Source: an uncultured Gammaproteobacteria bacterium
GTDB lineage: Bacteria > Patescibacteriota > Microgenomatia > Levybacterales > UBA12049
Direction: 5' to 3'
Assembly: GCA_964491185.1 (NCBI GenBank)
Contig: CAZBFH010000001.1
Location: 16,739 to 80,738 of the forward strand
DNA: 64,000 nucleotides
Of the stretch, positions 1,204 through 52,139 are shown piece by piece (positions within the stretch are counted from its first letter, which is position 1; every line of letters starts with the position of its first letter). A program made the position numbers and the translations under genes. The notes beneath the pieces are model-generated. The model saw only the letters and a list, made by a program, of their open reading frames with translations. It did no database searches and had not been told where the DNA came from.

Positions 1204-2523
1204 CTACACTCGGCGCATCTTATTCCAAAAGCTTCCTCGTCTCGGTAAAAAATCTTCGTCTCCTTTATTCTTAAGAAGCATTTCCACTGCTCTTTCAAGA
1301 AAAAGCGTATTCTGCGAGCCTTTTACTAAAACTAAATCTCCTTTATGAATTTCTTCTCTAATTACATCCTTAGCCTCTCTGAAAGTTTCAAAACATTTAA
1401 ATTTAAAATTATTTTTTTCTAAAATTGGAGCGACGAATTCGCTCATTAGCGGGCCAATAAGAATTACGAAGTCTAAATTTTTAAGAATTACTTTTGCGAG
1501 ATCCGTATGCTGTATTCTACTTAAAGTTCCAAGCTCTCTCATATCTCCCAAAATTCCTACTGTTCTTCCTTTTTTAATTTCACCAATTATCTCAATTGCA
1601 CCTTTTGCTGCAGCTAAAGAGGAATTATACGAAGAATCTATGATTAGAGCATCCTTTACACCTTCAAATATTGAAAACCTTCCCGGAGGAAGAGAAAAAT
1701 TTTCCTCAATTAATCGTAGTGCTTCATTAATGCTGAATTTACAAATAAACGCTATAGCAACAACTTCCATAAGTGAGTAGGCAAAATACTTAGGCAGAGG
1801 CATTGGAATATTGAGACTATATCGATCTTTTAGAAAGATAAAATTAATTGTAAAATTTTTCTCAGACACCTGAATACTAGAAATATAAAAGTCTGCATTT
1901 TTATCATTTGCTGAAATCGTAACTGTTTTGGACTTTAGAGGAAGAAGGTTTCTTATCTGATTGTCATCAAGATTTACTACCGAAGTACCATTCGCATCAA
2001 TTGCCTTAAGGAGTCTTCCTTCTTCCTTAGCGGTAAGATTCAAAATTTGCTCTCTCCTTTTTATATCATCCTCTTCATTTATTAAGTTATCAAAGTTAAG
2101 ACTATGCTCGATATCTATATTTGTCAAAACTCCAACATTTGGCGTAACGATAGAAAGAAGATATTCCATATTTTTCGGAGGTTTTGGACTATCAATTCCC
2201 ATTTCTAAAACCAAAAACTCATATTTCCTGCTGTTTGTTAAAATTTTAAAAGGTGCAAAAAGTAAAACCTTAAACCATTCCTTGAGGGTATAATTTACAA
2301 CATCAATATCAAGAATATTTAATGGGATCCCTGTCTCGCTATTTTTCCCTTTTCCTTCTTTAATATTAAATTTCGATCCCAAAACTTTTCCAACTAAAAA
2401 AGCTGTTGAAGATTTTCCACTCGCTCCTCCAATCCCAATTACAACAGGATTTATTTTCTTAAGTTGAATCTTTGCAAAATACCGAATATAAGACAAATAA
2501 AATTTTATTAATAAATTCCTCAT
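1204..2523 (-). CDS. murF: Mur ligase, MurF-like (UDP-MurNAc-tripeptide--D-Ala-D-Ala ligase) with a short N-terminus
   Basis: 439 aa. P-loop VVIGIGGASGKSSTA at about residue 30. C-terminal GILGDMRELG...LVKGSQNTLFLERAVEML resembles MurF (vLGDMaELG...LVKGSRS..mEevV). In-frame TAA two codons upstream of the ATG bounds the start. Lies directly downstream of ftsI. Confidence 0.6.
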   Translation of the reverse strand: MRNLLIKFYLSYIRYFAKIQLKKINPVVIGIGGASGKSSTAFLVGKVLGSKFNIKEGKGKNSETGIPLNILDIDVVNYTLKEWFKVLLFAPFKILTNSRKYEFLVLEMGIDSPKPPKNMEYLLSIVTPNVGVLTNIDIEHSLNFDNLINEEDDIKRREQILNLTAKEEGRLLKAIDANGTSVVNLDDNQIRNLLPLKSKTVTISANDKNADFYISSIQVSEKNFTINFIFLKDRYSLNIPMPLPKYFAYSLMEVVAIAFICKFSINEALRLIEENFSLPPGRFSIFEGVKDALIIDSSYNSSLAAAKGAIEIIGEIKKGRTVGILGDMRELGTLSRIQHTDLAKVILKNLDFVILIGPLMSEFVAPILEKNNFKFKCFETFREAKDVIREEIHKGDLVLVKGSQNTLFLERAVEMLLKNKGDEDFLPRRGSFWNKMRRV

Positions 2524-2535
2524 ATCTTAGTTAAC

Positions 2536-4218
2536 CTATTCGTCGGGAGCTATTCCATAATAAGTAAAAAGTTCTTTTGCAATCCCAAAGAATATTGGTG
2601 CAGCTGTCTCTGCACCGTAGATTCTAGCAGTTGGCCTGTCTAAAATCACTAACATAATGAATTTAGGATCATTTGCAGGCGCAAATCCTATAAATGAAGC
2701 TATAGTTTTGTTTGGGTCATATTTTCCCTCAACTGGGATAGAGGCGGTTCCAGTTTTTCCTGCTACTTTATACCCATCTATTTTTGCCCATTTAGCTTCT
2801 CCTTTATCAACTGCATTCACTAAAACCTGCGTCATCACTTTTGCTGTAGCTGGGCTAATAGGTTTTCCAATTTCCTTAGGTGGAATTTTGGTTACCTCTC
2901 CATGAACATCAGTAACAGAAGAAACAATATGTGGCTCCATCATGATTCCATTATTAGCTATGGACGAAAAAGCTGTTAAAAGTTCAATTGGAGTAATCGA
3001 GATTCCTTGTCCAAAACCAGTAGTTGCAAGATCTACTGCATACCAATTCTCTTTAGCTTTAATATCAGAAACTACTTCTCCCTGCAAGTCAATCCCAGTA
3101 AGTTTTCCTATTCCAAAGCGATCTAAATATTTCAACATTCGATCCAGGCCTAACTTTTGAGCCGTATAGACCATTCCAGTATTATCGGAATGCTGAATTA
3201 CTTCAAGCATAGTCGCATTTTCATAATATTCATCATTCCATGTATGAAGATCGTATCCGCCTACTGAAACTGGACCCGAGCAGATCGGACATTTACTTTG
3301 AGGTGTTAATAGTTTTTCATTAAAAGCAGCTGACATAACAAGAGGCTTAAAGGTAGAGCCAGGCTCATATAGATTTGTGACAAATGTATTCTTATATAAA
3401 TCACTTGAATATTCGCCGTATTTTGCAGGATCATACGTAGGAAAATTTGCCATCGTAATTATAGCACCCGTCGCTGGATCCATAATTCCCACCATTCCAC
3501 CTGCTGCTCCATATCTTTCAATTCCCTCCTTAAGCTTTTTTTCTGCCAGAAATTGTATTGAGCGATTAATATGAAGGTTTAAACTGCTCCCGTCAGTTCC
3601 AAAGGATTTCTCATTATCTACTCTTGCTAAAATTGGCCTACCTATAGCGTCGTGTATTTGAATCGCAGATCCATTTTTTCCCCTTAAAAGCCTATCATAG
3701 TATCCTTCAATTCCAGAATAACCTTTACTGCTGCCATTATCATCTTTTCCAACAAAACCTAAAAGATTTGCTGCCATTGAAGCCTCAGGATAAAATCTTT
3801 CAAATTGTTTTTCAAACCCAAGACCTAATATTTTTTCTTTTTCTATCTGCGCCCGAACCTGAGGATCGATTCCATGGGCAATTGGCACCCAAAAAAGATC
3901 TTGATCCAGCTGTGCACTGATTGATGCTTCATCAATTCCTAAACTCTGGGATAAAAATCTTGAAACTTGAGTTTTATTTTTTACTTCTTTGGGATTTGCA
4001 TATAAAAGATAGGTAATTTTATTCGCTGCAATAGGAAATCCATCAGAAGTCATAATTTCACCCCTTACGGGTTCAATTTTTATAGATTGCCCATACTGGA
4101 TTTGACCTAACTCAGATAGAGCTTCAGCCTTAACAACTTGCCAGTAGAAAAGACGAAGCAAAATAACCCCGAAAATTAAAGTAAAGAAAAGTAGAACTGT
4201 ACGATATCTTAAAATCAT
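2536..4218 (-). CDS. ftsI: Penicillin-binding protein transpeptidase (FtsI/PBP2-class)
   Basis: 560 aa. N-terminal TM helix. SxxK motif in PGSTFKPL, SxN in HSDNTG, KTGT in AGKTGTA. Position ftsL-ftsI-mur in the dcw cluster. Confidence 0.88.
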   Translation of the reverse strand: MILRYRTVLLFFTLIFGVILLRLFYWQVVKAEALSELGQIQYGQSIKIEPVRGEIMTSDGFPIAANKITYLLYANPKEVKNKTQVSRFLSQSLGIDEASISAQLDQDLFWVPIAHGIDPQVRAQIEKEKILGLGFEKQFERFYPEASMAANLLGFVGKDDNGSSKGYSGIEGYYDRLLRGKNGSAIQIHDAIGRPILARVDNEKSFGTDGSSLNLHINRSIQFLAEKKLKEGIERYGAAGGMVGIMDPATGAIITMANFPTYDPAKYGEYSSDLYKNTFVTNLYEPGSTFKPLVMSAAFNEKLLTPQSKCPICSGPVSVGGYDLHTWNDEYYENATMLEVIQHSDNTGMVYTAQKLGLDRMLKYLDRFGIGKLTGIDLQGEVVSDIKAKENWYAVDLATTGFGQGISITPIELLTAFSSIANNGIMMEPHIVSSVTDVHGEVTKIPPKEIGKPISPATAKVMTQVLVNAVDKGEAKWAKIDGYKVAGKTGTASIPVEGKYDPNKTIASFIGFAPANDPKFIMLVILDRPTARIYGAETAAPIFFGIAKELFTYYGIAPDE

Positions 4219-4499
4219 CTAAGAGATGCGATTGGCTTAGCCTTTGTTAGGGCAAAATTTGACTTACTGTCAACAAAGCCGATTCGCGCAGCTTCTGAAG
4301 CAACATGAGTTAGGGAGCTTAAGGAATAAATTTTTTCTCTTAAAATAACATTCTCAGTCCTAACCCTCACTAGCTCATCTTGAGTTTTTCCAAGAGCAAC
4401 TCCTTTTGTTGAAATTTTATTAGAAATTGCAGTTCGAGTTATAAATAGTCCTACAATTACTAATATTAAAATGGCTAAAACAAATATTGGTTTTTTCAT
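4215..4499 (-). CDS. ftsL: Cell division protein FtsL-like (septum formation initiator)
   Basis: 94 aa, single N-terminal TM helix then a coiled-coil-like segment. Lies between rsmH and ftsI with 4-nt overlaps on both sides. Confidence 0.5.
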   Translation of the reverse strand: MKKPIFVLAILILVIVGLFITRTAISNKISTKGVALGKTQDELVRVRTENVILREKIYSLSSLTHVASEAARIGFVDSKSNFALTKAKPIASLR

Positions 4500-5374
4500 A
4501 ACTTTTCAAATATCCTAAGCTTTGCGCTTTTACTCCTGCCATTTTCTTTAATTTCCTCTTGTGTTGGTAATATCGGTTTATCTGTTAAAATTTTCCCAAG
4601 TTTTTTTGCTTGAAATTCCAGGAATGCTCTTTTCACTATCCTGTCTTCCAGGGAGTGAAATGTGATTATCGCAATTCTTCCCTCATTCTCAAGTAAATCT
4701 AATGCCTTAGGAAGTGCTTCTTTTAAGCTTCCTAATTCGTCGTTAACCGCTATTCTTAATGCTTGAAATACTCTTTTTCCTGATGTTGCTCTTGCAAAGT
4801 CATTTACTGTCTTGAATCCATAAGCTGTTGCTAAGGTTAACGTTAAGTCGTCTGTAGTTTTAAATGGCGCTATCTTTCTTCTCTTAATAATTAAATCCGA
4901 AACTCTATTTGCATTTGTTTCTTCACCAAAATTTTTAAATAATTCTATGAGCTCACTTTTACCTAAGGCATTTACTAGATCGCTAGCCTTAACAGTTAAA
5001 TCTTTATCCATCCTCATGTCTAAGGGTCCAGGTAAAATGTATGAAAATCCCCTCTCCGGCGTATCAATCTGGTGTGAAGAAATTCCTAAATCAAAAAGAA
5101 TTCCCCATACCTTCTCAAATCCGTGTGCCCGAGCTACTGTGTCAATATTCCTGAAATTTCCCTTAGCGAGAATCAAGTTTTTACTATCAAGTCTAGCTTT
5201 AACAAAAGAGAGTGCTTCATCGTCCTGATCAATTCCCAGAACTACTCCACCACGGTTTAATAACTCTTCAGTGTGTCCACCGCCACCAAGAGTCGCATCA
5301 ATATATTTTCGACCCTTAGCAACATTCAATGCATTAATACCTTCATTTAAAAGTACAGATTTATGATATTTCAT
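4496..5374 (-). CDS. rsmH: 16S rRNA (cytosine1402-N4)-methyltransferase RsmH (MraW)
   Basis: 292 aa. GGGGHTEELL SAM-binding motif, FDLGISSHQ, IAIITFHSLEDR. Follows mraZ. Confidence 0.9.
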   Translation of the reverse strand: MKYHKSVLLNEGINALNVAKGRKYIDATLGGGGHTEELLNRGGVVLGIDQDDEALSFVKARLDSKNLILAKGNFRNIDTVARAHGFEKVWGILFDLGISSHQIDTPERGFSYILPGPLDMRMDKDLTVKASDLVNALGKSELIELFKNFGEETNANRVSDLIIKRRKIAPFKTTDDLTLTLATAYGFKTVNDFARATSGKRVFQALRIAVNDELGSLKEALPKALDLLENEGRIAIITFHSLEDRIVKRAFLEFQAKKLGKILTDKPILPTQEEIKENGRSKSAKLRIFEKL

Positions 5375-5798
5375 TGTTTTTTGTTATTTTTTCAGTAATT
5401 GGTTCGATTTTTTTAATTAATTCTAAATTATGTTGTTCCCAACGCTTTTTGTCCCAAATTTGCACATATCTAATTACTCCCAAAATACTTACTTCATCAC
5501 TCAAGCTCGCATATTCTCTTAAATAGGCAGGAATTATAAACCTTCCCTTGTCATCTAGTCCAACTTCCGAAGCATTACCCAAAAGAAATCTTTCTATCTC
5601 TCGTGCGTTTTTATCAATAATTGGTTTTCCTCTTGTTCCTTCGAGAAGAAGTTCAAATTTACTAACCGATATAACTATCAAAGAGCCTTCAAATCCTTGA
5701 GTAACAATTAAATTGTCACCCAGTTCACGTCGAAATTTAGCTGGTAATATAATTCTGTTTTTCTCATCAATTTTAGTATCTTGCCTGCCTATCAACAT
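5361..5798 (-). CDS. mraZ: Transcriptional regulator MraZ
   Basis: 145 aa with two MraZ half-domains (DEKNRIILPAKFR and DDKGRFIIPAYLR). First gene of the dcw cluster. Confidence 0.85.
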   Translation of the reverse strand: MLIGRQDTKIDEKNRIILPAKFRRELGDNLIVTQGFEGSLIVISVSKFELLLEGTRGKPIIDKNAREIERFLLGNASEVGLDDKGRFIIPAYLREYASLSDEVSILGVIRYVQIWDKKRWEQHNLELIKKIEPITEKITKNNEIS

Positions 5799-5852
5799 AT
5801 TTACCCCGCAGTTGGCGCGGGCTGCCTGATTGGATCAATGTGGATCAATTGT

Positions 5853-5870
5853 CCCACTTTTTCCCACTTT
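5853..5870 (-). promoter_or_regulatory. Putative MraZ operator: two direct AAAGTGGG repeats at 10-bp spacing (minus-strand sense) upstream of mraZ
   Basis: Plus strand reads cccacttt at 5853-5860 and 5863-5870, 55-72 bp upstream of the mraZ ATG (5798). A third copy lies in opposite orientation at 5961-5968. A consensus -35 TTGACA (minus strand, plus coords 5907-5912) lies just upstream. Confidence 0.45.
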
Positions 5871-5992
5871 GAACCATAAACATATTGTGCTCAATTCCGT
5901 GAAAAGTGTCAAGAGGCATTTCACGAAAATAGTGTGATTTAACAATCAAAAACACTACATAAAGTGGGCTTATAAGAATTTACCAGGAAGCT

Positions 5993-6361
5993 CTAAAGAC
6001 CAGCTTCAGACGGAGGCAAAGGATTTGCTCTATTGTAAATTTCTTCAGCTTCTTCCAGCGTTAAGCCCCATTGCTGTCTACCAGGGCCTAAGTATTGACC
6101 TTGACTGTTTTCTAAGCCCCATAAACCTTCGCCTTGATAAACTAATGATGTATCTTTAGGAACCACAAAACAAATTACTCGACTTTCCTCTTCCATAGGT
6201 TTGCCGACTTGATAAGGCATAAACACAAGCTCACTTCCATCTCTCACTAAATTGTCGATTACACTTGGCCATCTTAAATCAGCAGGTGCGGCAATTTTAA
6301 TTTCTTCTGGACGATTTTCAACCATAACGAAACTTATATCACGGGTTTTCAAAAATGTCAA
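5993..6361 (-). CDS. Hypothetical protein (GC-richer than neighbours)
   Basis: 122-aa ORF with no recognisable motif. Separated by 16 nt from the upstream ORF, suggesting co-transcription. Confidence 0.4.
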   Translation of the reverse strand: MTFLKTRDISFVMVENRPEEIKIAAPADLRWPSVIDNLVRDGSELVFMPYQVGKPMEEESRVICFVVPKDTSLVYQGEGLWGLENSQGQYLGPGRQQWGLTLEEAEEIYNRANPLPPSEAGL

Positions 6362-6903: not shown

Positions 6904-6936
6904 TTAGCCTCGCAAGGCCTGGCCTTGCGAGGCTAA
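6904..6936. repeat. Perfect 16-bp-arm palindrome (TTAGCCTCGCAAGGCC t GGCCTTGCGAGGCTAA). REP-like element and possible bidirectional terminator hairpin.
   Basis: Read directly: 6904-6919 is the exact reverse complement of 6921-6936. Lies in the 3' intergenic region after the gene ending at 6955. No U-tract immediately follows on either strand. Confidence 0.55.
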
Positions 6937-6954: not shown

Positions 6955-7398
6955 TTAAGCAATTTTAGCTACAGGAGGAAAAATGTCTGGAAATGCATTG
7001 GGAATTTCTCGAAGCGCTTCTTCTCCCCTAATTGGCTCATCTTTCCCTTCCATCATGAGCTCAATATCTGCAATCTTTATATCTGGATTTAATGTGGATC
7101 TAGAAATTTGCATAAATAAACTACTTGATCCTTCTTTAAGAGCAACAGCGTCAATTGGAATTATACCCGCGCGTTCGCGAATATCTCCAGAATAACCATA
7201 ACTTTTATTTTTGTGGTCAAAGAAAATTAAAGATGGATAAGGCTCACCTGTATTAACTCCATGCAAAGCATGTGCCGTGATTTGCCCTTGCGCTTCTGGA
7301 ATCATTTCAAGCCTGCTTCCTAATAACTCAATAGCCTCTTCTACCTTCTCAGGAAATGTTAATTGGGGTTTTTCTGCTACCGCAGTGCTTTCAGCCAT
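6955..7398 (-). CDS. Hypothetical protein
   Basis: 147-aa ORF. Its stop overlaps the glyS region, and the ORF starts where glyS ends (7398). Confidence 0.45.
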   Translation of the reverse strand: MAESTAVAEKPQLTFPEKVEEAIELLGSRLEMIPEAQGQITAHALHGVNTGEPYPSLIFFDHKNKSYGYSGDIRERAGIIPIDAVALKEGSSSLFMQISRSTLNPDIKIADIELMMEGKDEPIRGEEALREIPNAFPDIFPPVAKIA

Positions 7399-29891: not shown

Positions 29892-32800
29892 GTTTTAATT
29901 TTAGCAAGATTAATACAAATACAAATAATGTCACTATGCTTATAATTATTCCTATGTAAAATGCTTTCTGAGGTTCGTAAAAGATTGCTATTTCAAAATC
30001 TCCTGTACCGTCAACATACCATGCATTTGAAAATCCGTTTGACTTAATATGATTAACTTCTGGTATTGGGTTAGTTGTAAATACAGGCACTAAACTTCTA
30101 TCAAATACTCTATCTTCTGATTTTAACTCTTTAATTTCTCCGTTAAAATATTCTCTTTTTACTTCATCTTCACTATCCCTGCGATTAAAGACATATGCCT
30201 TCCATCCCGTACTAAAGCTATTTCCAAAATTAAGAAAAAATGGACCTCTTGCATTAGTCACATTGACAACATAATGCGTGGGATTAATCTTTTTAAATGA
30301 GATATTAGGAATATTTTGATCCTCATTTTTTATATTTCTAAATAGATAAATTTTTGGTGAAAGCTTCCTGGTCAGTTTTAGATTCCTAATTGAAATATTG
30401 TTTTTATTTTTAGAAATATTTTTAACAATTAAATTTATGCCATTTGGACTTATACTATTATTTTTTAACTCCTGAGAAACAAGTTCCCAATCAGAATTTT
30501 CATATACATTAAACCTTGAATTTACAGACATGTCATGATCTGTTAAAGTTTCAATTATGGCCTCAGAAGATGTTTTATATTCAAATGTTAATAGATATTT
30601 ATCGTACTCACCAATGTCTTTTAAATTTAGTCTAATACTGTGGCCATTAGCTAAAGAGAACTCATCCAGTCTCTGATCCAAGACTTCACTAGATTCATCA
30701 TTAAGATTAACCCTTAACCTATGCTCACCTTTATCAAGAGTGATCGGACTTTCTAGTTCTATTTCTTTTTCATCCAGCAACATCGATGTAATATTTAATT
30801 TGTCGAAATTCTTAAGCTCATAACTATCCTTTTCCTCAATATTAAAAACTAGATTTTTCTCTTTCAGTGATCTAGGACGCCAAACATCTTTCTCAATCAA
30901 GGAAATATTTGCGTTAACAAATTCCGTTAGGCTAGATACCACTGATCTCAAGCCGTTATCATCTGTATAAAGTGTTTCTAGTAATTCTTTCTGTGAATAC
31001 AGATAAGCGGCTAATTTATATTTATATTTATCATTTTGAAGTCCTTCTAACTGATTAGATCCTTTAAGCGCATTTCCGATCAACTCTTTGTATTCCTGAC
31101 TCAAGACCTGAAGCTTTAATTCATTTTTCTTAGAGCTTACTTGAGACTGATAAAAAATGCCTTCAAATTCAGAAATTCTTGCATGTGAAAACGCTAGATT
31201 TAGATCAATTTTCTGTGCGGGGTCAGTAACTTGAGATCTCAACTTATTTTCCTTACTTATCTTGAATCGATAGAAAATAGATCCAGGCAAAACATTAGCT
31301 TTGGGTACTAATAGATTTATCCTCATTGACTCGTACTCCCGGTCAGAACATAAGATACACTCTGGCTTATTATAAATTTGATTACTAATTTTGTTAATTA
31401 TTCCCTGCTTGCCAGCATTTTCCACATCCTCATTAATCGATAATATTCTTTCCTGTTTTTCATTAGAAATTAGATCTAAGCTACTGTCTAATTCAAGATT
31501 AGAGCTAATTATTTTAAGCGGAGAGTAAAAAAGCGGAAGATAATAAGAAGAATTTACATTTAAAATTTCCCATTCACCAAATATTTTATCTGATTTTATT
31601 TCTTTGTTTTCTAATAATTCTTTTTTTTCTGATTGAATTATATTATCTCTATTTGATTTATTACTATAGATGATATCGTTTCTGACTAAGATTTTATTTA
31701 TTCCGGTTCTACCTAAGAGTTTCGTAAAGGATTCTGAATTGTTTTTTTCAGTTGCTTTATAGATTTGATTAACAATCTCGGGAGCCACTGTATCATTGGA
31801 AACTACTGAATTGTTCAGCGAAAGAAACGATAATGGCTCAAGACTCCAAAATCCCCAACCATAACTATCTACTTTATAGAGTGGGTCCAATTTCGGAATA
31901 AGGATTAACCTATTACTTGAGTCCAAACTATTCAAATATGTGTTTGAATCGTAAACATAATTTGGTACTGAAACTTTTGTTACAAACGGTTTATTGAATT
32001 GAAAAAAGTTAGAATTAAAAAATGGAAAATGGTAAACAAGAAGTATTAATATGACAAAAAATCCAACCATATTAAACATAATTTTATTCCGGATAAACTT
32101 ATTGAGAATTAAATTTAAATAAAAACTTGAAAGAAGAATTAATGAAAACCAAACCGCAGGACCAAATTTATAAATAGCGGATCTAAAAATAGCAAATCCC
32201 GGAATATGTTCAACTAAAAAAATATAAATAAACCCAAAAGGAGGATGTGATCCACCCGCAAACACGATCCCAACAAATAAAACGATAAAAAGTAAATGTA
32301 TTAAATCCTGCTGTTTTTTTATCATATCTTTTCTGTTTTGAAAAAATAATCCAAAAAGTATTAACAGTATTGGAACAAAACTCAAAACAATTAGAGCTGG
32401 ATTATTTATGAAATGATATGAGAATGAGTGACTTGGGTTATCATACCAATCAGGAATTCCCTGAAGCCTAATTAGATTTAGTACACTCGCATACTTATTT
32501 ATGGCGTTCTCCCATGCAAGTATTCCAGATATTCCTCCAATTGAAGAAAGTACACCCGAGTAACCATTTAATGCAGTGTAAATCTGAGGCAAAATAAAGT
32601 AAGCATTAATTGATAAAAATCCTAAGGCGAATAGAGCCACTGTTTTAAATGTATGAACTATTGCTTTAAATCCCGATTCTCTAATATTTAAAATTGTTAC
32701 GAAAACGAACGTTAATCCGTAAACAAGAATTAAAGATCCATAAAGCGGGGGTGAACCCCCACCATTCAAAAAAAATGAAAGAATAGAAAAGAGAATTGTT

Positions 32801-46603: not shown

Positions 46604-49096
46604 CTAAAGCTTTATGCGAGGCTTTAAAGTAACTGAATTTATTAAAATCTCAAACGGCCCGTCACCAAAGTCTAATGAGACATTTGTAAAATATTTTTTT
46701 AGATAATCACCACTTCCAGAATAAATTTCCCCTTCCGGTATTTCAGCATTTATTTTTTGATTTGCCAAACTAAATTTAAATGGAAAATATAAGTATTGAT
46801 AGTTCTGAACAGATCCTGTTTTATTCGTTTCCCACGTTAATTTTGCCCAAAAAGTATCAAGTCCGATTTTATGCAAATATTCTAGGTCTTGATGTCCATT
46901 CATAAAATCAAACATATTTACCATATCCTTGAATAATCTACTCCTATCACTATAAAGACCGACTATATCATTTGAAGAAGAATTGATAACTTCGAATTCA
47001 TCAATAGCTACAAAATCTCCTCCTGAAGTTGTATGAATCTCCATTTTTACGTATCTCGCAATAACAGGATCGAAGGAATCAATTTTTTCAAAAACAGTAG
47101 AATTTTTTACATCTATAACTTTTTTCCAATTCTTGTTGTCCCTAGAAACTGAAACTGAATATGTTGCAGGAATTCTCGTAGATTTCTCTAATGATCCCCA
47201 TGACACTGCAGAAATTTCCTTCTCCATTCCCAAATCCACCTGTATCCAAGGCACGAATGAGTCTGCAATCCACATGGATCTCTTACCCGGATTCCCATCA
47301 ATTAAATTTTTAGGCAAAACGTGAAAGAAGGGTTCTCCCTCTCTTTGAGACATTGTGTATGCTGTTTTTACTTTCACAGTTTTAAGATACTCATTTCTCT
47401 GAAGAGAGTAATTTGCTAATGCTCTAAACTTCTGGCTGTCTGGATTTCTTCCAATAACACTCAAAACCTCAAAAGCACTTAAATCCATATCCAAATTATA
47501 TGGCAAATCGACAACTGGACCCTGGAAATTAGAACTCTTGTAAACATTGTCAAATTTATTAATACTGATTTGATAATTTTTTTGGTTTAAGAGTAATTTT
47601 TTTGTTCTTTCAGTTTCATTAATTAATCCATTACTCAAACTGTGATCTAAAAAAACGACATCATTAATATTCACCTTGCCATTTTTTACTTTTGAAAGAA
47701 CCGCAATAAGCTGAGATTCAACTCTAAAAGGCTCATCTTCAAGATTTGAGTACTTTTTATCTTTAATCGTAAACCACTCCAAAAGATAATCTCCTAAAGC
47801 AGGAGCATGCGGATATAAATAAAAAGTAGTATTGTCAGAAAGTTTTGGAAAATATGAATTAAATTTTGTATAAAAACCTTTGGCTGGCTTGTAAAAATCT
47901 ACATACACTTCCCTTTCAATTTTCCATATTAAAATAAGATTAACAACCACAACTACTGCAACGAATAATTTTAATAGCTTTAAATTCGTAAAATAATTGA
48001 TTAAAATTATTCCCAAGAGAACACTGGTTCCTAAGAATGCAAAATACCTATAACGCATTGTGTTGTATTCATATGCTCGCGATAAAACCTCCGGAGTACT
48101 AGGAACAGCAAGTGAAACAAATACTGAGAACAGCCCTAACCAAATTAAGAAAAATAAAAATATTCTAAAATATGCTTTAGATTTTTTCAGTTTTAGCCAA
48201 ATCAATCCAAATAATCCAACGGTCATCCATCCAACAGCTGGAAAAAAGTATTTATTCATTGTTTCGTAATAAACAAACTTCGAACCTTGTTCCCTTAAAT
48301 AGTTCATAAGATCATATGGAATAATTTGCGGTGGAATTAGTTTTCCAATCGTGAGAAATGCAGCCTTAGCATACTCAAAATACAATCCATCACTCATAAA
48401 CCTCATTTGGAGCTTTACATTCCCATCAGCTGTATCTCCCGGAGTACCCCCATATAAGGATCTAATTAAAAAGAATCCCAGGATTATTAACGCGAATGGA
48501 ATTTGTCTTTTTACAATTCCCAAGATTTCTTTTTGTGAAAAAATATTTTTTGTAAAAATGACATCCATTGCAAAAATTAGAGGAATTAATACAATTCCTG
48601 TCTCTCTGACAAAAAATCCCAAAAAAGCTGAAAGAAGAGAAAGAACAAGCATTCTTTTATCATTTTTTTCTTTATATTTAAAAAATGCAGTTAAGCTTAT
48701 AAGTAAACAGATTAGGAGTAATGGATAATAAGAATTAAAGCTTCCCCAAGTGAGAACGTCGTTATAACAAGTGGTGACAGTGAAAATTAACGAGGAAATA
48801 AATGCAAGTTGTCTCTTTTTCGAAATCGTATATATAAATTTATAGAATAGAAGATAGGCAATTACTTGAACAATTAAAGCTGTTAAATACCATCCCCAAG
48901 GATTCCAACCAAATATTTTCCAGTCCAGAAAATATAAAAATCCATGACCTTTGATTAAATTTACTACCGTGTATGGAGCAATACCCGTTAACCACGTAGC
49001 TTCATACGCCTTAAAAAACCAAAAATTTAGTGTTGGGAACCAAGCTAGTACTCCAAGAAACGCAATAATTAAGTAATTCCTTTTATCTGGATTCAT
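46604..49096 (-). CDS. Polytopic membrane protein (GT-C-like) with C-terminal extracytoplasmic F5/8 type C (discoidin) carbohydrate-binding domain
   Basis: 830 aa. About 13 N-terminal TM helices. C-terminal NLIDGNPGKRSMWIADSFVPWIQVDLGMEKEISAVSWGS matches the discoidin signature (W..........WIQVDLG....I..V). Confidence 0.5.
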   Translation of the reverse strand: MNPDKRNYLIIAFLGVLAWFPTLNFWFFKAYEATWLTGIAPYTVVNLIKGHGFLYFLDWKIFGWNPWGWYLTALIVQVIAYLLFYKFIYTISKKRQLAFISSLIFTVTTCYNDVLTWGSFNSYYPLLLICLLISLTAFFKYKEKNDKRMLVLSLLSAFLGFFVRETGIVLIPLIFAMDVIFTKNIFSQKEILGIVKRQIPFALIILGFFLIRSLYGGTPGDTADGNVKLQMRFMSDGLYFEYAKAAFLTIGKLIPPQIIPYDLMNYLREQGSKFVYYETMNKYFFPAVGWMTVGLFGLIWLKLKKSKAYFRIFLFFLIWLGLFSVFVSLAVPSTPEVLSRAYEYNTMRYRYFAFLGTSVLLGIILINYFTNLKLLKLFVAVVVVVNLILIWKIEREVYVDFYKPAKGFYTKFNSYFPKLSDNTTFYLYPHAPALGDYLLEWFTIKDKKYSNLEDEPFRVESQLIAVLSKVKNGKVNINDVVFLDHSLSNGLINETERTKKLLLNQKNYQISINKFDNVYKSSNFQGPVVDLPYNLDMDLSAFEVLSVIGRNPDSQKFRALANYSLQRNEYLKTVKVKTAYTMSQREGEPFFHVLPKNLIDGNPGKRSMWIADSFVPWIQVDLGMEKEISAVSWGSLEKSTRIPATYSVSVSRDNKNWKKVIDVKNSTVFEKIDSFDPVIARYVKMEIHTTSGGDFVAIDEFEVINSSSNDIVGLYSDRSRLFKDMVNMFDFMNGHQDLEYLHKIGLDTFWAKLTWETNKTGSVQNYQYLYFPFKFSLANQKINAEIPEGEIYSGSGDYLKKYFTNVSLDFGDGPFEILINSVTLKPRIKL

Positions 49097-50123
49097 CTTT
49101 ATAATTTTCTAAATTCCCACTACTTAAAAAATAGTAATACTTAATATTAACTTTCCTCGTTAAAATATTTACAAAACTGTCATCATTTACTTTTCTGATA
49201 TTCTTTTGTACTTTCCCTCTTTCCTTTAACATTCTTGAAAAATTGAACATGTTCCAGAATATTGCTTTTTGAATTGCTACCGCATAACCTGGTTTTCCAA
49301 TCAACAGATAGAGAACGGTTGAAACTTCACAAATAATTAAATGCGGAATTAAAATTGAAATAATATTTTTTATTTCAAAATTTTTTAAATATGTGTAAAG
49401 TCTATTTTTAAAAGAATGGTATTGAATAAATGCGCTTGGAAGCTTCTCTGAGGTCTTTCCCCCTTTATGATAAATTATTGGCTTTGTGAGAATTTTAATC
49501 TTGTGGCCATTTAACCAAACTCTATGTGAGAAGTCAGTTTCTTCGAAATAAGCGAAATAGCTTTCGTCGAAAAGTCCAATTTCCTCAACTAGATTTCTCC
49601 TAACTAAAAAGCAGGCTCCATATGCTGTAAAGATTTCATATGACTCTTTATAATTTGAAGGTTTAAATGTTTTCCCGTAATCAAGGTGGTATAAGAATCC
49701 GCTTTTTAAGATAAAACTCCCAACTGAATTAATTTTTTCATGCATTGAAGTATTAGGTCTATGAAAAAGAATAGTCGGCTGAATAACAGCGAGACTTTTG
49801 TCTTTTTCTATAAACTCCACTAATTCATCAAGGAAATTTTTTGTGACAATCGTGTCATTGTTTAGAAATAATATATATTTTCCTCGACAATATTTAAGTC
49901 CAAAATTATTGCCACCAGCAAATCCTAAGTTTTTTTTAGATTTTATTATTTTGACCTTTGGATAATATTTTTCGGTAAATTCTACAGAATTATCTACTGA
50001 GCCGTTGTCCACCATTATGACCTCAAAATTCGAATAGGAAATTTTAAATAATGACTCAAAACAATCTTTCAAATGTTCCTTAGAATTCCAATTTACGATA
50101 AGAATTGATACTAATGGTTTCAT
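49083..50123 (-). CDS. GT2 glycosyltransferase
   Basis: 346 aa. VSILIVNWNSKEHLKDCFESL, IMVDNGSVDNS, D-x-D. Confidence 0.75.
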   Translation of the reverse strand: MKPLVSILIVNWNSKEHLKDCFESLFKISYSNFEVIMVDNGSVDNSVEFTEKYYPKVKIIKSKKNLGFAGGNNFGLKYCRGKYILFLNNDTIVTKNFLDELVEFIEKDKSLAVIQPTILFHRPNTSMHEKINSVGSFILKSGFLYHLDYGKTFKPSNYKESYEIFTAYGACFLVRRNLVEEIGLFDESYFAYFEETDFSHRVWLNGHKIKILTKPIIYHKGGKTSEKLPSAFIQYHSFKNRLYTYLKNFEIKNIISILIPHLIICEVSTVLYLLIGKPGYAVAIQKAIFWNMFNFSRMLKERGKVQKNIRKVNDDSFVNILTRKVNIKYYYFLSSGNLENYKDESR

Positions 50124-51268
50124 ATCAAATCTCCTTTTTTAAATGCATTGTCTAATGTTTTTTCAATATCGGTATCCTCTGACATTCTCAATGCATTTTC
50201 TCTAAGCGACATATAAAATTTTCTATCCAAAATAAGTTTTTCAATTGCTTGCGCTAGTTCTTTTTTGTCTTTTTTTATGTATATCCCTGCATTATTTGTT
50301 TTAATTTCTTCTGCTGTTCCAATATTTCCTGATATAACAACTGGAAGACCTAGAGCTAAATAGTCTCTCGCTTTCATCGAATCGCTGTAATAAGACCAAG
50401 GAGCATTATCAGTATAAATTGCAATTCCGATCCCTTGCGTAGCTAGAATCTCAAATACTTCTTTATGAGTTTTTAAACCCGCTAAAATTATATTTTTCGA
50501 AAGCTTTCTTAGCTCAATATCTTTTTTTAGATCATTCATTCCTTCACCCTGTCCGATAATAGTGAGTTTTAACTGGGGATGTTTTTTAACTAAAGTCTGC
50601 ATTGCATCAATAATTAATCCAAAATCAAGAGCTTTTGAAATTGTACCAATTGTAATTAGGTTTTGGGAATTTGGACTCTTACTAATTAGCTTTTTAATCT
50701 CTCTTACAGCGGGGGCATTGGGGACTAAGAATAAATTTTCTTTTTTCTTACCCTGAATTATCCGCAAATCAAAAATTCTGGATGAAACCACCCATGCCTG
50801 ATCTGATAATTTTAATGTGATTTTATCGATAAAATGATAAAGATTATTTAACACAGAATTACTAAACCTTTTAGGAGAGTAGTCAACCGTAAATGAAATA
50901 AGCTTATTCACTTTTCCAGTCTTCTTTAAAATTAACCCCCAAAGACTATTTAGAGGATCGATTCCAATGTAAGCCACCTTTTTACTCTCTATATATTTAT
51001 TCACAATTCTAATTGTCTGAATTCCTTCAATAACTCTATTCAATGGCTCAAAAAGACTTATATTGGAATCAATTTCAAACTCCTTAGATTTACCATCTTT
51101 TTTTAAATGAATTAATGTTTTGTCTCCTTTAAAAAGTGAGTGCCTAATGAAGAGATAATCCTCACCTTTTTTATCCAGATAAGAGACAATATTGTGTGCG
51201 GGTCCCGCTACGTCTTTTGTATCAGAGAGGACTGCATGAGTTACTACTATAAATTTATTTTTCATCAC
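50120..51268 (-). CDS. GT4-like glycosyltransferase (paralog of 36879-38033)
   Basis: 382 aa. See the alignment under 36879-38033. C-terminal GT-B domain ...GLPVVISGNIGTAEEI. Confidence 0.65.
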   Translation of the reverse strand: MMKNKFIVVTHAVLSDTKDVAGPAHNIVSYLDKKGEDYLFIRHSLFKGDKTLIHLKKDGKSKEFEIDSNISLFEPLNRVIEGIQTIRIVNKYIESKKVAYIGIDPLNSLWGLILKKTGKVNKLISFTVDYSPKRFSNSVLNNLYHFIDKITLKLSDQAWVVSSRIFDLRIIQGKKKENLFLVPNAPAVREIKKLISKSPNSQNLITIGTISKALDFGLIIDAMQTLVKKHPQLKLTIIGQGEGMNDLKKDIELRKLSKNIILAGLKTHKEVFEILATQGIGIAIYTDNAPWSYYSDSMKARDYLALGLPVVISGNIGTAEEIKTNNAGIYIKKDKKELAQAIEKLILDRKFYMSLRENALRMSEDTDIEKTLDNAFKKGDLI

Positions 51269-52139
51269 TCATTTTCTTTAGCCCTTCGATTATTTTAAGC
51301 GGCTTAATATTTAATTGTTTTTCAATTTTTAATGTGACAAAAGTTGTGTCCTTTGGCCTTGGGACAATATTTTTAAAAAAATCACTCGTTACTGAATTAA
51401 TAAGACTTGTGTCTAATCCAAAAACCTTCGCAGTCATTATGGCAAGATCGTATCTATTTATGGATTCTGCTCCACCCACATTATATGTCTCGTTAATCTT
51501 ATTCTTTTTTATAATTTCCCAAATTACATCTACTGCCTGACCTACATAGAGGTGGTTGTTGTACACATCATTTACTACATTAATTGTATTTTTTTTCTTA
51601 AGCTCTTCGATAACCCATCCAACAGGATTATTTCTTCCTCCTTTTGGCGCCCAGCCATACATTGTCATAAGCCTAATTATGGAATACTGCACTCCACTTT
51701 TTTTTATTATTTCTTCACCTTTCTCCTTAGTATATCCATAATAATCCAGTGGATGAATCTTCGAATCCTCAACATATGGAGGTTTTTTCCCATCAAAAAT
51801 TGCATTAGATGAAGTAAATATTACAAATGATCCGAACTCACTTGATGCATCAACAATATTTCTTGTCCCACCAACATTTATATTTTCCGCCTCATTCTTA
51901 TGAGTCTCACAATAGTCAACGTTCCCAATTGCAGCTGCATGCACAATATAATTTGGTTTTATTTTTCTTACTAAGTCAAACACCTCATCTCTATTTGAAA
52001 CATCAAGTGGATAGAAGTTTTTTTTCTTTAAATTACTATTTCTGTTAAATGTTCCAAAAAGTTCGAAGTCCTTATGAGAAGAGTCAAAAAAATATTTACC
52101 AAGAAGTCCTGTAGCTCCAGTAAATAAAACTTTTTTCAT
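51255..52139 (-). CDS. RmlD-fold NDP-sugar 4-reductase (CDP-abequose/paratose synthase-like)
   Basis: 294 aa. LFTGATGLLGKYF Rossmann motif. TSSNAIFDGKKPPYVEDSKIHPLDYYGYTKEKGE (YxxxK). Confidence 0.6.
   Translation of the reverse strand: MKKVLFTGATGLLGKYFFDSSHKDFELFGTFNRNSNLKKKNFYPLDVSNRDEVFDLVRKIKPNYIVHAAAIGNVDYCETHKNEAENINVGGTRNIVDASSEFGSFVIFTSSNAIFDGKKPPYVEDSKIHPLDYYGYTKEKGEEIIKKSGVQYSIIRLMTMYGWAPKGGRNNPVGWVIEELKKKNTINVVNDVYNNHLYVGQAVDVIWEIIKKNKINETYNVGGAESINRYDLAIMTAKVFGLDTSLINSVTSDFFKNIVPRPKDTTFVTLKIEKQLNIKPLKIIEGLKKMSDEK

Follow-up and report, generated by a model that had tools for sequence, protein, structure and literature searches.

A probable MraZ operator of phased GTGG boxes at the predicted dcw promoter of a Levybacteria genome

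The leader of mraZ in the Levybacteria DNA analysed here, a window of 64,000 nucleotides, very probably contains the MraZ operator of the dcw (mra) promoter. The putative operator (5853–5880) covers the predicted transcription start, and binding of MraZ to it would autorepress mraZ-rsmH-ftsL-pbp. An initial annotation had proposed a probable MraZ operator upstream of mraZ; comparison with related leaders bears this proposal out, as does the match to the MraZ box known from experiment, and as a reading of the leader sequence it is strongly supported. On the mraZ strand the predicted layout runs TTGACA, 17 nt, CACAAT, atgttt, ATGG ttc AAAGTGGG aa AAAGTGGG ac AATTGATCCA CATTGATCCA ATC AGGCAG, and continues from AGGCAG as CCCGC gccaact GCGGG G TAAAT ATG. 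The features of this leader and the genes that follow it are listed in Table 1.

Table 1. Features of the mraZ leader and the adjoining dcw genes, in positions of the window
Feature	Position	Strand	Remarks
Inverted AAAGTGGG	5961–5968	+	species-specific; not counted as part of the operator
Distal pair TAGTGT (5952–5957)-N16-ACACTATTTT (5926–5935)	5926–5957	−	ends 13 nt upstream of the -35
Inverted repeat TTTCGTGAAA (5895–5904) ... TTTCACGGAA (5919–5928)	5895–5928		10-nt arms, 90% complementary; brackets the -35
-35 hexamer TTGACA, predicted mra promoter	5907–5912	−	promoter scan
Predicted -10 hexamer CACAAT	5884–5889	−	promoter scan; CAAAAT in most Levybacteria
Box 0, degenerate, tttATGGttc	5871–5880	−	core ATGG 5874–5877; exactly 10 bp upstream of box 1
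Box 1, AAAGTGGG	5863–5870	−	core GTGG 5864–5867; invariant in all close relatives
Box 2, AAAGTGGG	5853–5860	−	core GTGG 5854–5857; invariant in close relatives except for one flank change in L110
Quasi-palindrome AAAGTGGGACAATTGATCCACATT	5837–5860		centre CAATTG; box 2 and first decamer; 15-nt arms, 80% complementary
Tandem decamers AATTGATCCA / CATTGATCCA	5831–5850	−	predicted 5' UTR; in phase with the boxes
AGGCAG leader motif	5822–5827	−	immediately before the mraZ start; many Levybacteria have (A)GGCAGG(A)
G+C-rich hairpin CCCGC-gccaact-GCGGG	5805–5821	−	-10 kcal/mol; between AGGCAG and GTAAAT-ATG
mraZ coding sequence, 145 aa	5361–5798	−	ATG at 5798; first gene of the dcw cluster; Pfam MraZ PF02381, E 3e-26
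rsmH/mraW	4496–5374	−	directly after mraZ; Methyltransf_5 match, 3e-90
ftsL-like ORF	4215–4499	−	from the ORF list
PBP transpeptidase	2536–4218	−	from the ORF list
439-aa ORF	1204–2523		Mur-ligase-like, judged from sequence and not by domain scan

The leader contains a pair of AAAGTGGG copies. The plus-strand cccacttt pair from which the operator was first proposed is present at both positions and corresponds to AAAGTGGGaaAAAGTGGG on the mraZ strand, with a start-to-start distance of exactly 10 bp. The initial annotation was right about these two copies but missed the degenerate ATGG box that lies in phase with them. The cores are of the GTG(G/T) type with 6-nt gaps, and the set of two perfect GTGG cores and one in-phase ATGG stands at the low end of the range seen among relatives. 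The boxes end 54 nt upstream of the mraZ ATG. Exact 9-mer tandem repeats with a period of 10 occur only twice in the 64 kb, as the box pair and as a pair of decamers which abuts it in phase; shuffled sequences held a mean of 0.53 such repeats per window. The pattern GTG[GT]-N6-GTG[GT] also has two occurrences in the window when both strands are counted, one in the mraZ leader and the other at 32252–32265. The latter (GTGTttgcggGTGG, minus strand) lies inside an ORF of 1146 aa and is probably a chance match.

For comparison, mraZ loci were gathered from species-representative genomes, metagenomes and exact-protein look-ups. This provided 73 non-redundant Patescibacteria mraZ upstream regions of 200 nt each, and the remaining 417 kb of the same loci, read on both strands, formed the background. 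The initial annotation had suggested looking for the boxes in related mraZ leaders, and they are conserved there at 10-bp phasing: at least two phased GTG(G/T) boxes are present in 59 of the 73 Patescibacteria leaders and at least three in 28, while the background contains six two-box and no three-box matches, an enrichment of about 300-fold. At least two phased boxes also occur in 30 of 31 leaders from Actinomycetota and Bacillota, often as aaaGTGGag. Most Levybacteria have three GTGG boxes plus ATGG, and the clade of the window has two plus ATGG. Within this clade the stretch of 27 nt that begins with ATGG and ends with GTGGGAC does not vary, unlike the promoter spacer, which does so at about 7 of 17 positions. 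The ATGG of box 0 is conserved in this phase in the close clade; in most Levybacteria the sequence caAAATGG overlaps the -10. The pair of AAAGTGGG copies might instead be a neutral tandem duplication, or a purine-rich RNA element of the 5' UTR unrelated to MraZ binding, as the boxes are predicted to be transcribed. Such a reading is extremely improbable and is effectively refuted already by the comparative data, since a phased GTGG array stands upstream of mraZ in three sampled phyla, with the enrichment given above, and according to the literature is bound experimentally by MraZ in four species.

The names of homologues place the window in Candidatus Levybacteria of the Patescibacteria. The boxes lie upstream of a cognate mraZ, which is followed on the same strand by rsmH, an ftsL-like ORF and a PBP gene. 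The MraZ encoded in the window matches the M. genitalium MraZ structures 9qlr and 9qlg with an E value of 3e-19 and identical residue numbering. These structures are cryo-EM complexes with DNA in which K13, R15 and R86 contact the MraZ box (PMC12957436). All three residues, and with them the two DXXXR motifs, are retained in the window, and in an alignment of 34 Levybacteria MraZ homologues the three residues are invariant. Box sequence, box phasing, conservation of the boxes in orthologous leaders and conservation of the contact residues are matters of direct observation.

Several other features of the surroundings were recorded. Between the mraZ promoter and a conserved upstream gene of 158 aa lies an ORF of 110–122 aa (5993–6361, minus strand), which has no Pfam match. 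It is found in the species of the window and in L114, L117 and L126, and is absent in L001, L081, L109, L111 and L113 (L numbers denote the loci compared); judged from this distribution it is probably a lineage-specific gene insertion. The minus strand holds 57 of the 58 crude ORF calls in the window, and these ORFs span about 96% of it. A perfect G+C-rich palindrome, AGCCTCGCAAGGCC-a-GGCCTTGCGAGGCT, is located at 6906–6934, 20 nt 3' of the ORF at 6955–7398, and has no T-run after it. Several public MAG records with Levybacteria-type mraZ loci are titled 'uncultured Gammaproteobacteria bacterium' (L001, L005, L007, L010–L013, L015, L017 and L018); their MraZ identity to the window reaches 92%, and these titles appear to be mislabelled. 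Samples that contain the species of the window include SRR31051132 and SRR16481182.

The promoter assigned to this leader is of the sigma-70 type, TTGACA-17-CACAAT, and matches the consensus at 10 of 12 positions in a promoter scan. Its perfect -35 on the minus strand had been recognised in the initial annotation, which left the -10 unnamed. TTGACA is near-invariant in its position across Levybacteria leaders, for which the consensus anchored on the -35 reads TTGACA-N17-tCAAAATgg-t.AAAGTGGgaaAAAGTGGgaaAAAGTGGGA. The -10 CACAAT is weak, with four of six matches, and was assigned by consensus only. The predicted promoter ends 6 nt before box 0, a layout like that of E. coli, and the transcription start is predicted to fall within box 0.

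By homology with E. coli, B. subtilis and Mycoplasma, MraZ would be expected to bind these boxes, transcription to start where it is predicted and regulation to take the direction of repression. Since the boxes begin 6 nt after the predicted -10, the transcription start would be covered, and MraZ binding would exclude RNA polymerase. In the proposed mechanism three boxes in 10-bp register (ATGG, GTGG, GTGG), each preceded by an A-rich flank, would cover the predicted start and the first ~25 nt of the transcript. An oligomer of MraZ would line one face of the helix, with each box and its major groove taken by one subunit, and bound MraZ would block RNA polymerase, resulting in autorepression of the cluster. 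Autorepression via MraZ boxes at the start site has been reported in E. coli, B. subtilis and M. genitalium (PMC12957436; bioRxiv 10.1101/2022.02.09.479790; PMC8475190). In M. gallisepticum, MraZ overexpression is associated with increased FtsZ, according to the summary in PMC8475190, so the direction of MraZ regulation is not universal. A mini-ORF over the boxes (ATGGTTCAAAGTGGGAAAAAGTGGGACAATTGA) was considered and rejected; it is not conserved, and other Levybacteria reach a stop after two codons. Searches against Rfam gave no match at the gathering score in the window and none at E ≤ 1 in 5700–6050.

The operator of E. coli Pmra, with its MraZ boxes, was reportedly described by Eraso et al. 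in 2014. The E. coli details used here come from the K-12 genome sequence and from secondary citations in PMC8475190. In the K-12 genome Pmra reads TTGACA...TAAACT-cctttca-GTGGgaaattGTGGggcaaaGTGGgaat, with the boxes caGTGGgaaattGTGGggcaaaGTGGgaat. Pmra and the window promoter both stand immediately before mraZ, where the dcw cluster begins, and both have a TTGACA -35. A few nucleotides after the -10 (7 nt in E. coli) come boxes that have a GTGG core and are spaced by 6 nt, and the third box of E. coli, AAAGTGGGAA, has the same sequence as boxes 1 and 2 of the window. They differ in that E. coli has three full GTGG cores and the window two plus ATGG. A further difference is the tandem decamer, joined in some members by a G+C hairpin, which the clade of the window carries between operator and start codon. 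Across phyla, the published MraZ consensus consists of GTG(G/T) boxes separated by 6 nt, three in number or four in M. genitalium, and every characterised site is made up of direct repeats (PMC12957436). M. gallisepticum has the site (AAAGTGKN3)3 (PMC5282649), and in M. genitalium transcription starts inside the first MraZ box (PMC12957436), which matches the predicted position of the start in the window. The window shares with Mollicutes the AAAGTG(G/T) box, the A-rich 5' flank, the 10-bp period and the contact residues K13, R15 and R86, but Mollicutes prefer GTGT, and M. genitalium has four AAAGTGT/G boxes where the window has GTGG(G) and three boxes. The B. subtilis site consists of three GTGG[A/T]G repeats, which occur at no other promoter than mra and are needed for repression (bioRxiv 10.1101/2022.02.09.479790); the array analysed here, too, is all but unique within the 64 kb, although its flank is GTGGGA rather than the GTGGAG/GTGGTG of the B. 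subtilis triple. The operator had been described as a lineage-specific hybrid of mycoplasma and E. coli forms. This idea was rejected on the strength of the E. coli sequence, the published consensus and the leaders of Bacillota and Actinomycetota, in which the AAAGTGG form is also common. Given the E. coli K-12 boxes quoted above, TGGGN is just another register of GTGGG, and the hybrid reading is a false dichotomy.

A third AAAGTGGG copy in inverted orientation, upstream of the -35, had also been listed with the operator. The copy is present, but a role as a MraZ box does not hold, as the site reads AAAGTAGG in relatives. In six related species (11 loci) the site is AAAGTAGG (cctacttt on the mraZ strand; L001, L081, L117, L114, L109, L111, L113, L120 and L126) or, in L116, AAAGTAGA (tctacttt), and the G is found only in contigs of the window's own species (L105–L108). 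The site sits within a differently conserved motif, CTACAT/CTACTTTAT, which precedes TAGTGT. The 8-mer AAAGTGGG itself occurs four times in the window, where 2.1 copies are expected and 19 of 100 shuffles reach four; because this count is at chance level, an isolated inverted copy has no statistical weight. As an auxiliary MraZ box it was therefore rejected in favour of a coincidental match.

The tandem decamer pair that had been attached to the proposed operator, TGGATCAATG / TGGATCAAT(T) at 5831–5850, is real, but it is restricted to one genus-level clade and is not a general operator feature. Tandem Repeats Finder (TRF) gives a period of 10, 1.9 copies and a 100% match. On the plus strand the decamers read (T)TGGATCAAT GTGGATCAAT, which produces an inverted GTGG at 5840–5843. 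The pair recurs with 0–2 changes in four other species with 84–92% MraZ identity (L117/L118/L114/L115/L126; L109/L110; L116; L113/L120). Over the 29 nt that run from the first decamer to the end of AGGCAG, L109, L116, L113 and L120 match the window at all 29 positions, whereas the 4-fold-degenerate sites of mraZ in decamer-carrying relatives are 63–85% identical to the window, a difference which argues for purifying selection on the decamer segment. In L001 and L081, in which mraZ is only ~5% diverged from L117, and in a further lineage, L111/L112, the decamers are replaced by an unrelated 'type B' segment (aaatgatatRgtttgaRg...). Type A cassettes, which hold the decamers and AGGCAG, and type B cassettes occupy the stretch from the last box to the start codon; they are interleaved among species only 5–15% diverged in mraZ, a pattern that suggests recombination or polymorphism shared across species. 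Since type B takes their place in sister lineages, the decamers appear to be a dispensable cassette; from the sequence comparison they are best described as a clade-specific 5'-UTR element which is constrained, dispensable and not a defining part of the operator.

What this element might do was considered in several ways. The decamers cannot be read as forward MraZ boxes, as their in-phase tetramers, TGAT and TTGA, have only TG in common with the box core. Pairing of UGAUCC in the decamer with a GGAUCA in the 3' tail of 16S rRNA was a further candidate. One candidate role, tentative and on balance unlikely, is in RNA: UUGAUCCAC AUUGAUCCA would pair with the transcribed box 0/box 1 sequence UGGUUCAAAGUGG to form a 5'-proximal stem-loop affecting the stability or translation of mraZ mRNA. 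Of 13 positions in the two segments 11 are complementary, and both the minimum-free-energy and the centroid folds contain the pairing. The only substitution in the stem among relatives (CCA to CCG, in L117, L114 and L126) replaces a U-A pair by a U-G wobble, and the identity of the 29-nt segment in L109, L116, L113 and L120, despite an identity of only 63–80% at the 4-fold sites of mraZ, fits a constrained stem. This remains a single informative substitution, however, and the fold is no better than that of shuffled sequences (z -1.45; 16 of 200 shuffles fold as well); in type B leaders (L001, L081, L111) the counterpart is limited to 6 bp rich in A/U, and nothing equivalent exists in more distant Levybacteria.

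It is also conceivable, though doubtful, that the decamers extend the operator in DNA, the opposite-strand TTGG-N6-GTGG and the quasi-palindrome with box 2 recruiting a second, inverted MraZ oligomer that would offset the small number of perfect boxes. The clade does have two perfect forward boxes, compared with three in the majority of Levybacteria, the decamers keep the 10-bp register, and the inverted GTGG at 5840–5843 is accompanied by a 15-nt palindrome arm, 80% complementary, around CAATTG. Against such a convergent site, the second inverted box is TTGG, or TCGG in L117, L114 and L126; the flanks AATGTGGAT differ from the consensus AAAGTGGGA; the inverted site is 14 bp centre-to-centre from box 2 and therefore off-phase; and few other leaders have an inverted CCAC downstream of the array. 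It would also depart from the characterised MraZ sites, all of which are direct repeats (PMC12957436).

Binding of another protein to the decamers, for example DnaA, which would couple dcw expression to replication, is very unlikely. The sequence TGATCCACA (5839–5847) matches the DnaA box TTATCCACA at eight of nine positions, TGATCCAAT matches it at six of nine, and the segment is conserved within the clade. Position 2 of the DnaA box is a conserved T. It is at this position that TGATCCACA has its mismatch, a G, while TGATCCAAT, in the second decamer, has three mismatches; the decamer segment is moreover absent from sister lineages. A DnaA box array with the consensus TTATNCACA was rejected, as one-mismatch matches are too common in the window, at 31 against about 19 expected by chance. 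Among the three readings, the RNA stem in the 5' UTR is preferred by a small margin over a convergent MraZ site and by a wide one over a site of the DnaA type.

The sequences listed in the initial annotation were all found as described, but that list missed the distal motifs, the inverted repeat around the -35 and the G+C hairpin at AGGCAG. GGC[AG]G occurs in 36 of 54 Levybacteria mraZ leaders. AGGCAGG was rejected as a generic ribosome-binding site: most genes of the window have no Shine-Dalgarno-like sequence, and in the few that do it is the canonical AAGGAG/AGGAG, so the motif is specific to the mraZ leader. Nearly all start codons in the window are preceded by A/T-rich sequence without a Shine-Dalgarno motif; canonical AAGGAG/AGGAG precedes the ORFs at 49083–50123 and 51255–52139.

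The 3' arm of the hairpin together with the next G makes a GGGG run, 5 nt before the ATG. This is the only Shine-Dalgarno-like G-run there, and it could be a sequestered Shine-Dalgarno sequence. The hairpin is identical in L125 (79% MraZ identity). Both stem strands are changed in L113 and L120 (CCCCG..CGGGG), L085 has CCGCGCC..GGCGGG, and L117, L114, L109 and L116 have no hairpin. More distant Levybacteria carry unrelated hairpins at the same GGCAG(G) position, with two tandem hairpin-GGCAGGA modules in L090. In general, a G+C hairpin often interrupts (A)GGCAGG(A) or comes after it; even close relatives differ in having it, and its stem varies on both strands, as noted at 5804–5827 of the window and in L125, L113, L120, L085, L018, L008, L021, L029, L034, L090 and L095. 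Judged from these sequences, it is plausible that the hairpin modulates translation.

Upstream of the promoter, the pair TAGTGT-N16-ACACTATTTT is the only match to this pattern in the 64 kb, where 0 are expected. It is conserved phylum-wide with fixed spacing, 17–18 nt from TTGACA (L001–L036, L081–L099). An intrinsic terminator hairpin formed by TAGTGT...ACACTA was considered and rejected. At -1 to -8 kcal/mol the stems are weak, the N16 spacer is no more structured than shuffled versions of itself (mean z -0.06), and the arms evolve independently, since in one subgroup the left arm TAGTGT becomes TTGRGT and the right arm does not compensate; a terminator scan found no intrinsic terminator. 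In our own reading against the published consensus, the right half of the pair together with its T-tract resembles an UP element in its position, and the pair could serve as an UP-like element or be bound by a second regulator. In the inverted repeat that brackets the -35 (CGTGAAA...TTTCACG), L113 changes both arms symmetrically (TGTGAAA..TTTCACA), and many mraZ promoters of Levybacteria have GTGAAAA or TTTTCAC between the -35 and the -10. A broader proposal would take the distal pair and this inverted repeat as the operator of a second cell-division regulator in the Candidate Phyla Radiation (CPR), and the type A and type B cassettes, with their decamers and inverted GTGG, as an accessory layer for the tuning of autoregulation, either a convergent MraZ site or a switch in the 5' UTR. 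This combination is improbable; if true, the Levybacteria dcw promoter would carry more than a MraZ operator.

To our knowledge, no promoter or operator of a CPR bacterium has been characterised experimentally. Judged on its sequence, the leader described here appears to be a textbook MraZ operator in a new lineage; it is ordinary, and it leaves the understanding of MraZ unchanged. Anything new could come only from the decamer cassette, the start-codon hairpin and the distal motifs. The CPR preserves the MraZ box with its 10-bp phasing and its place over the predicted transcription start, as well as the DNA-contact residues of MraZ, and the predicted sigma-70-type promoter and the putative repressor site may together provide an anchor for the annotation of regulatory DNA in these bacteria.
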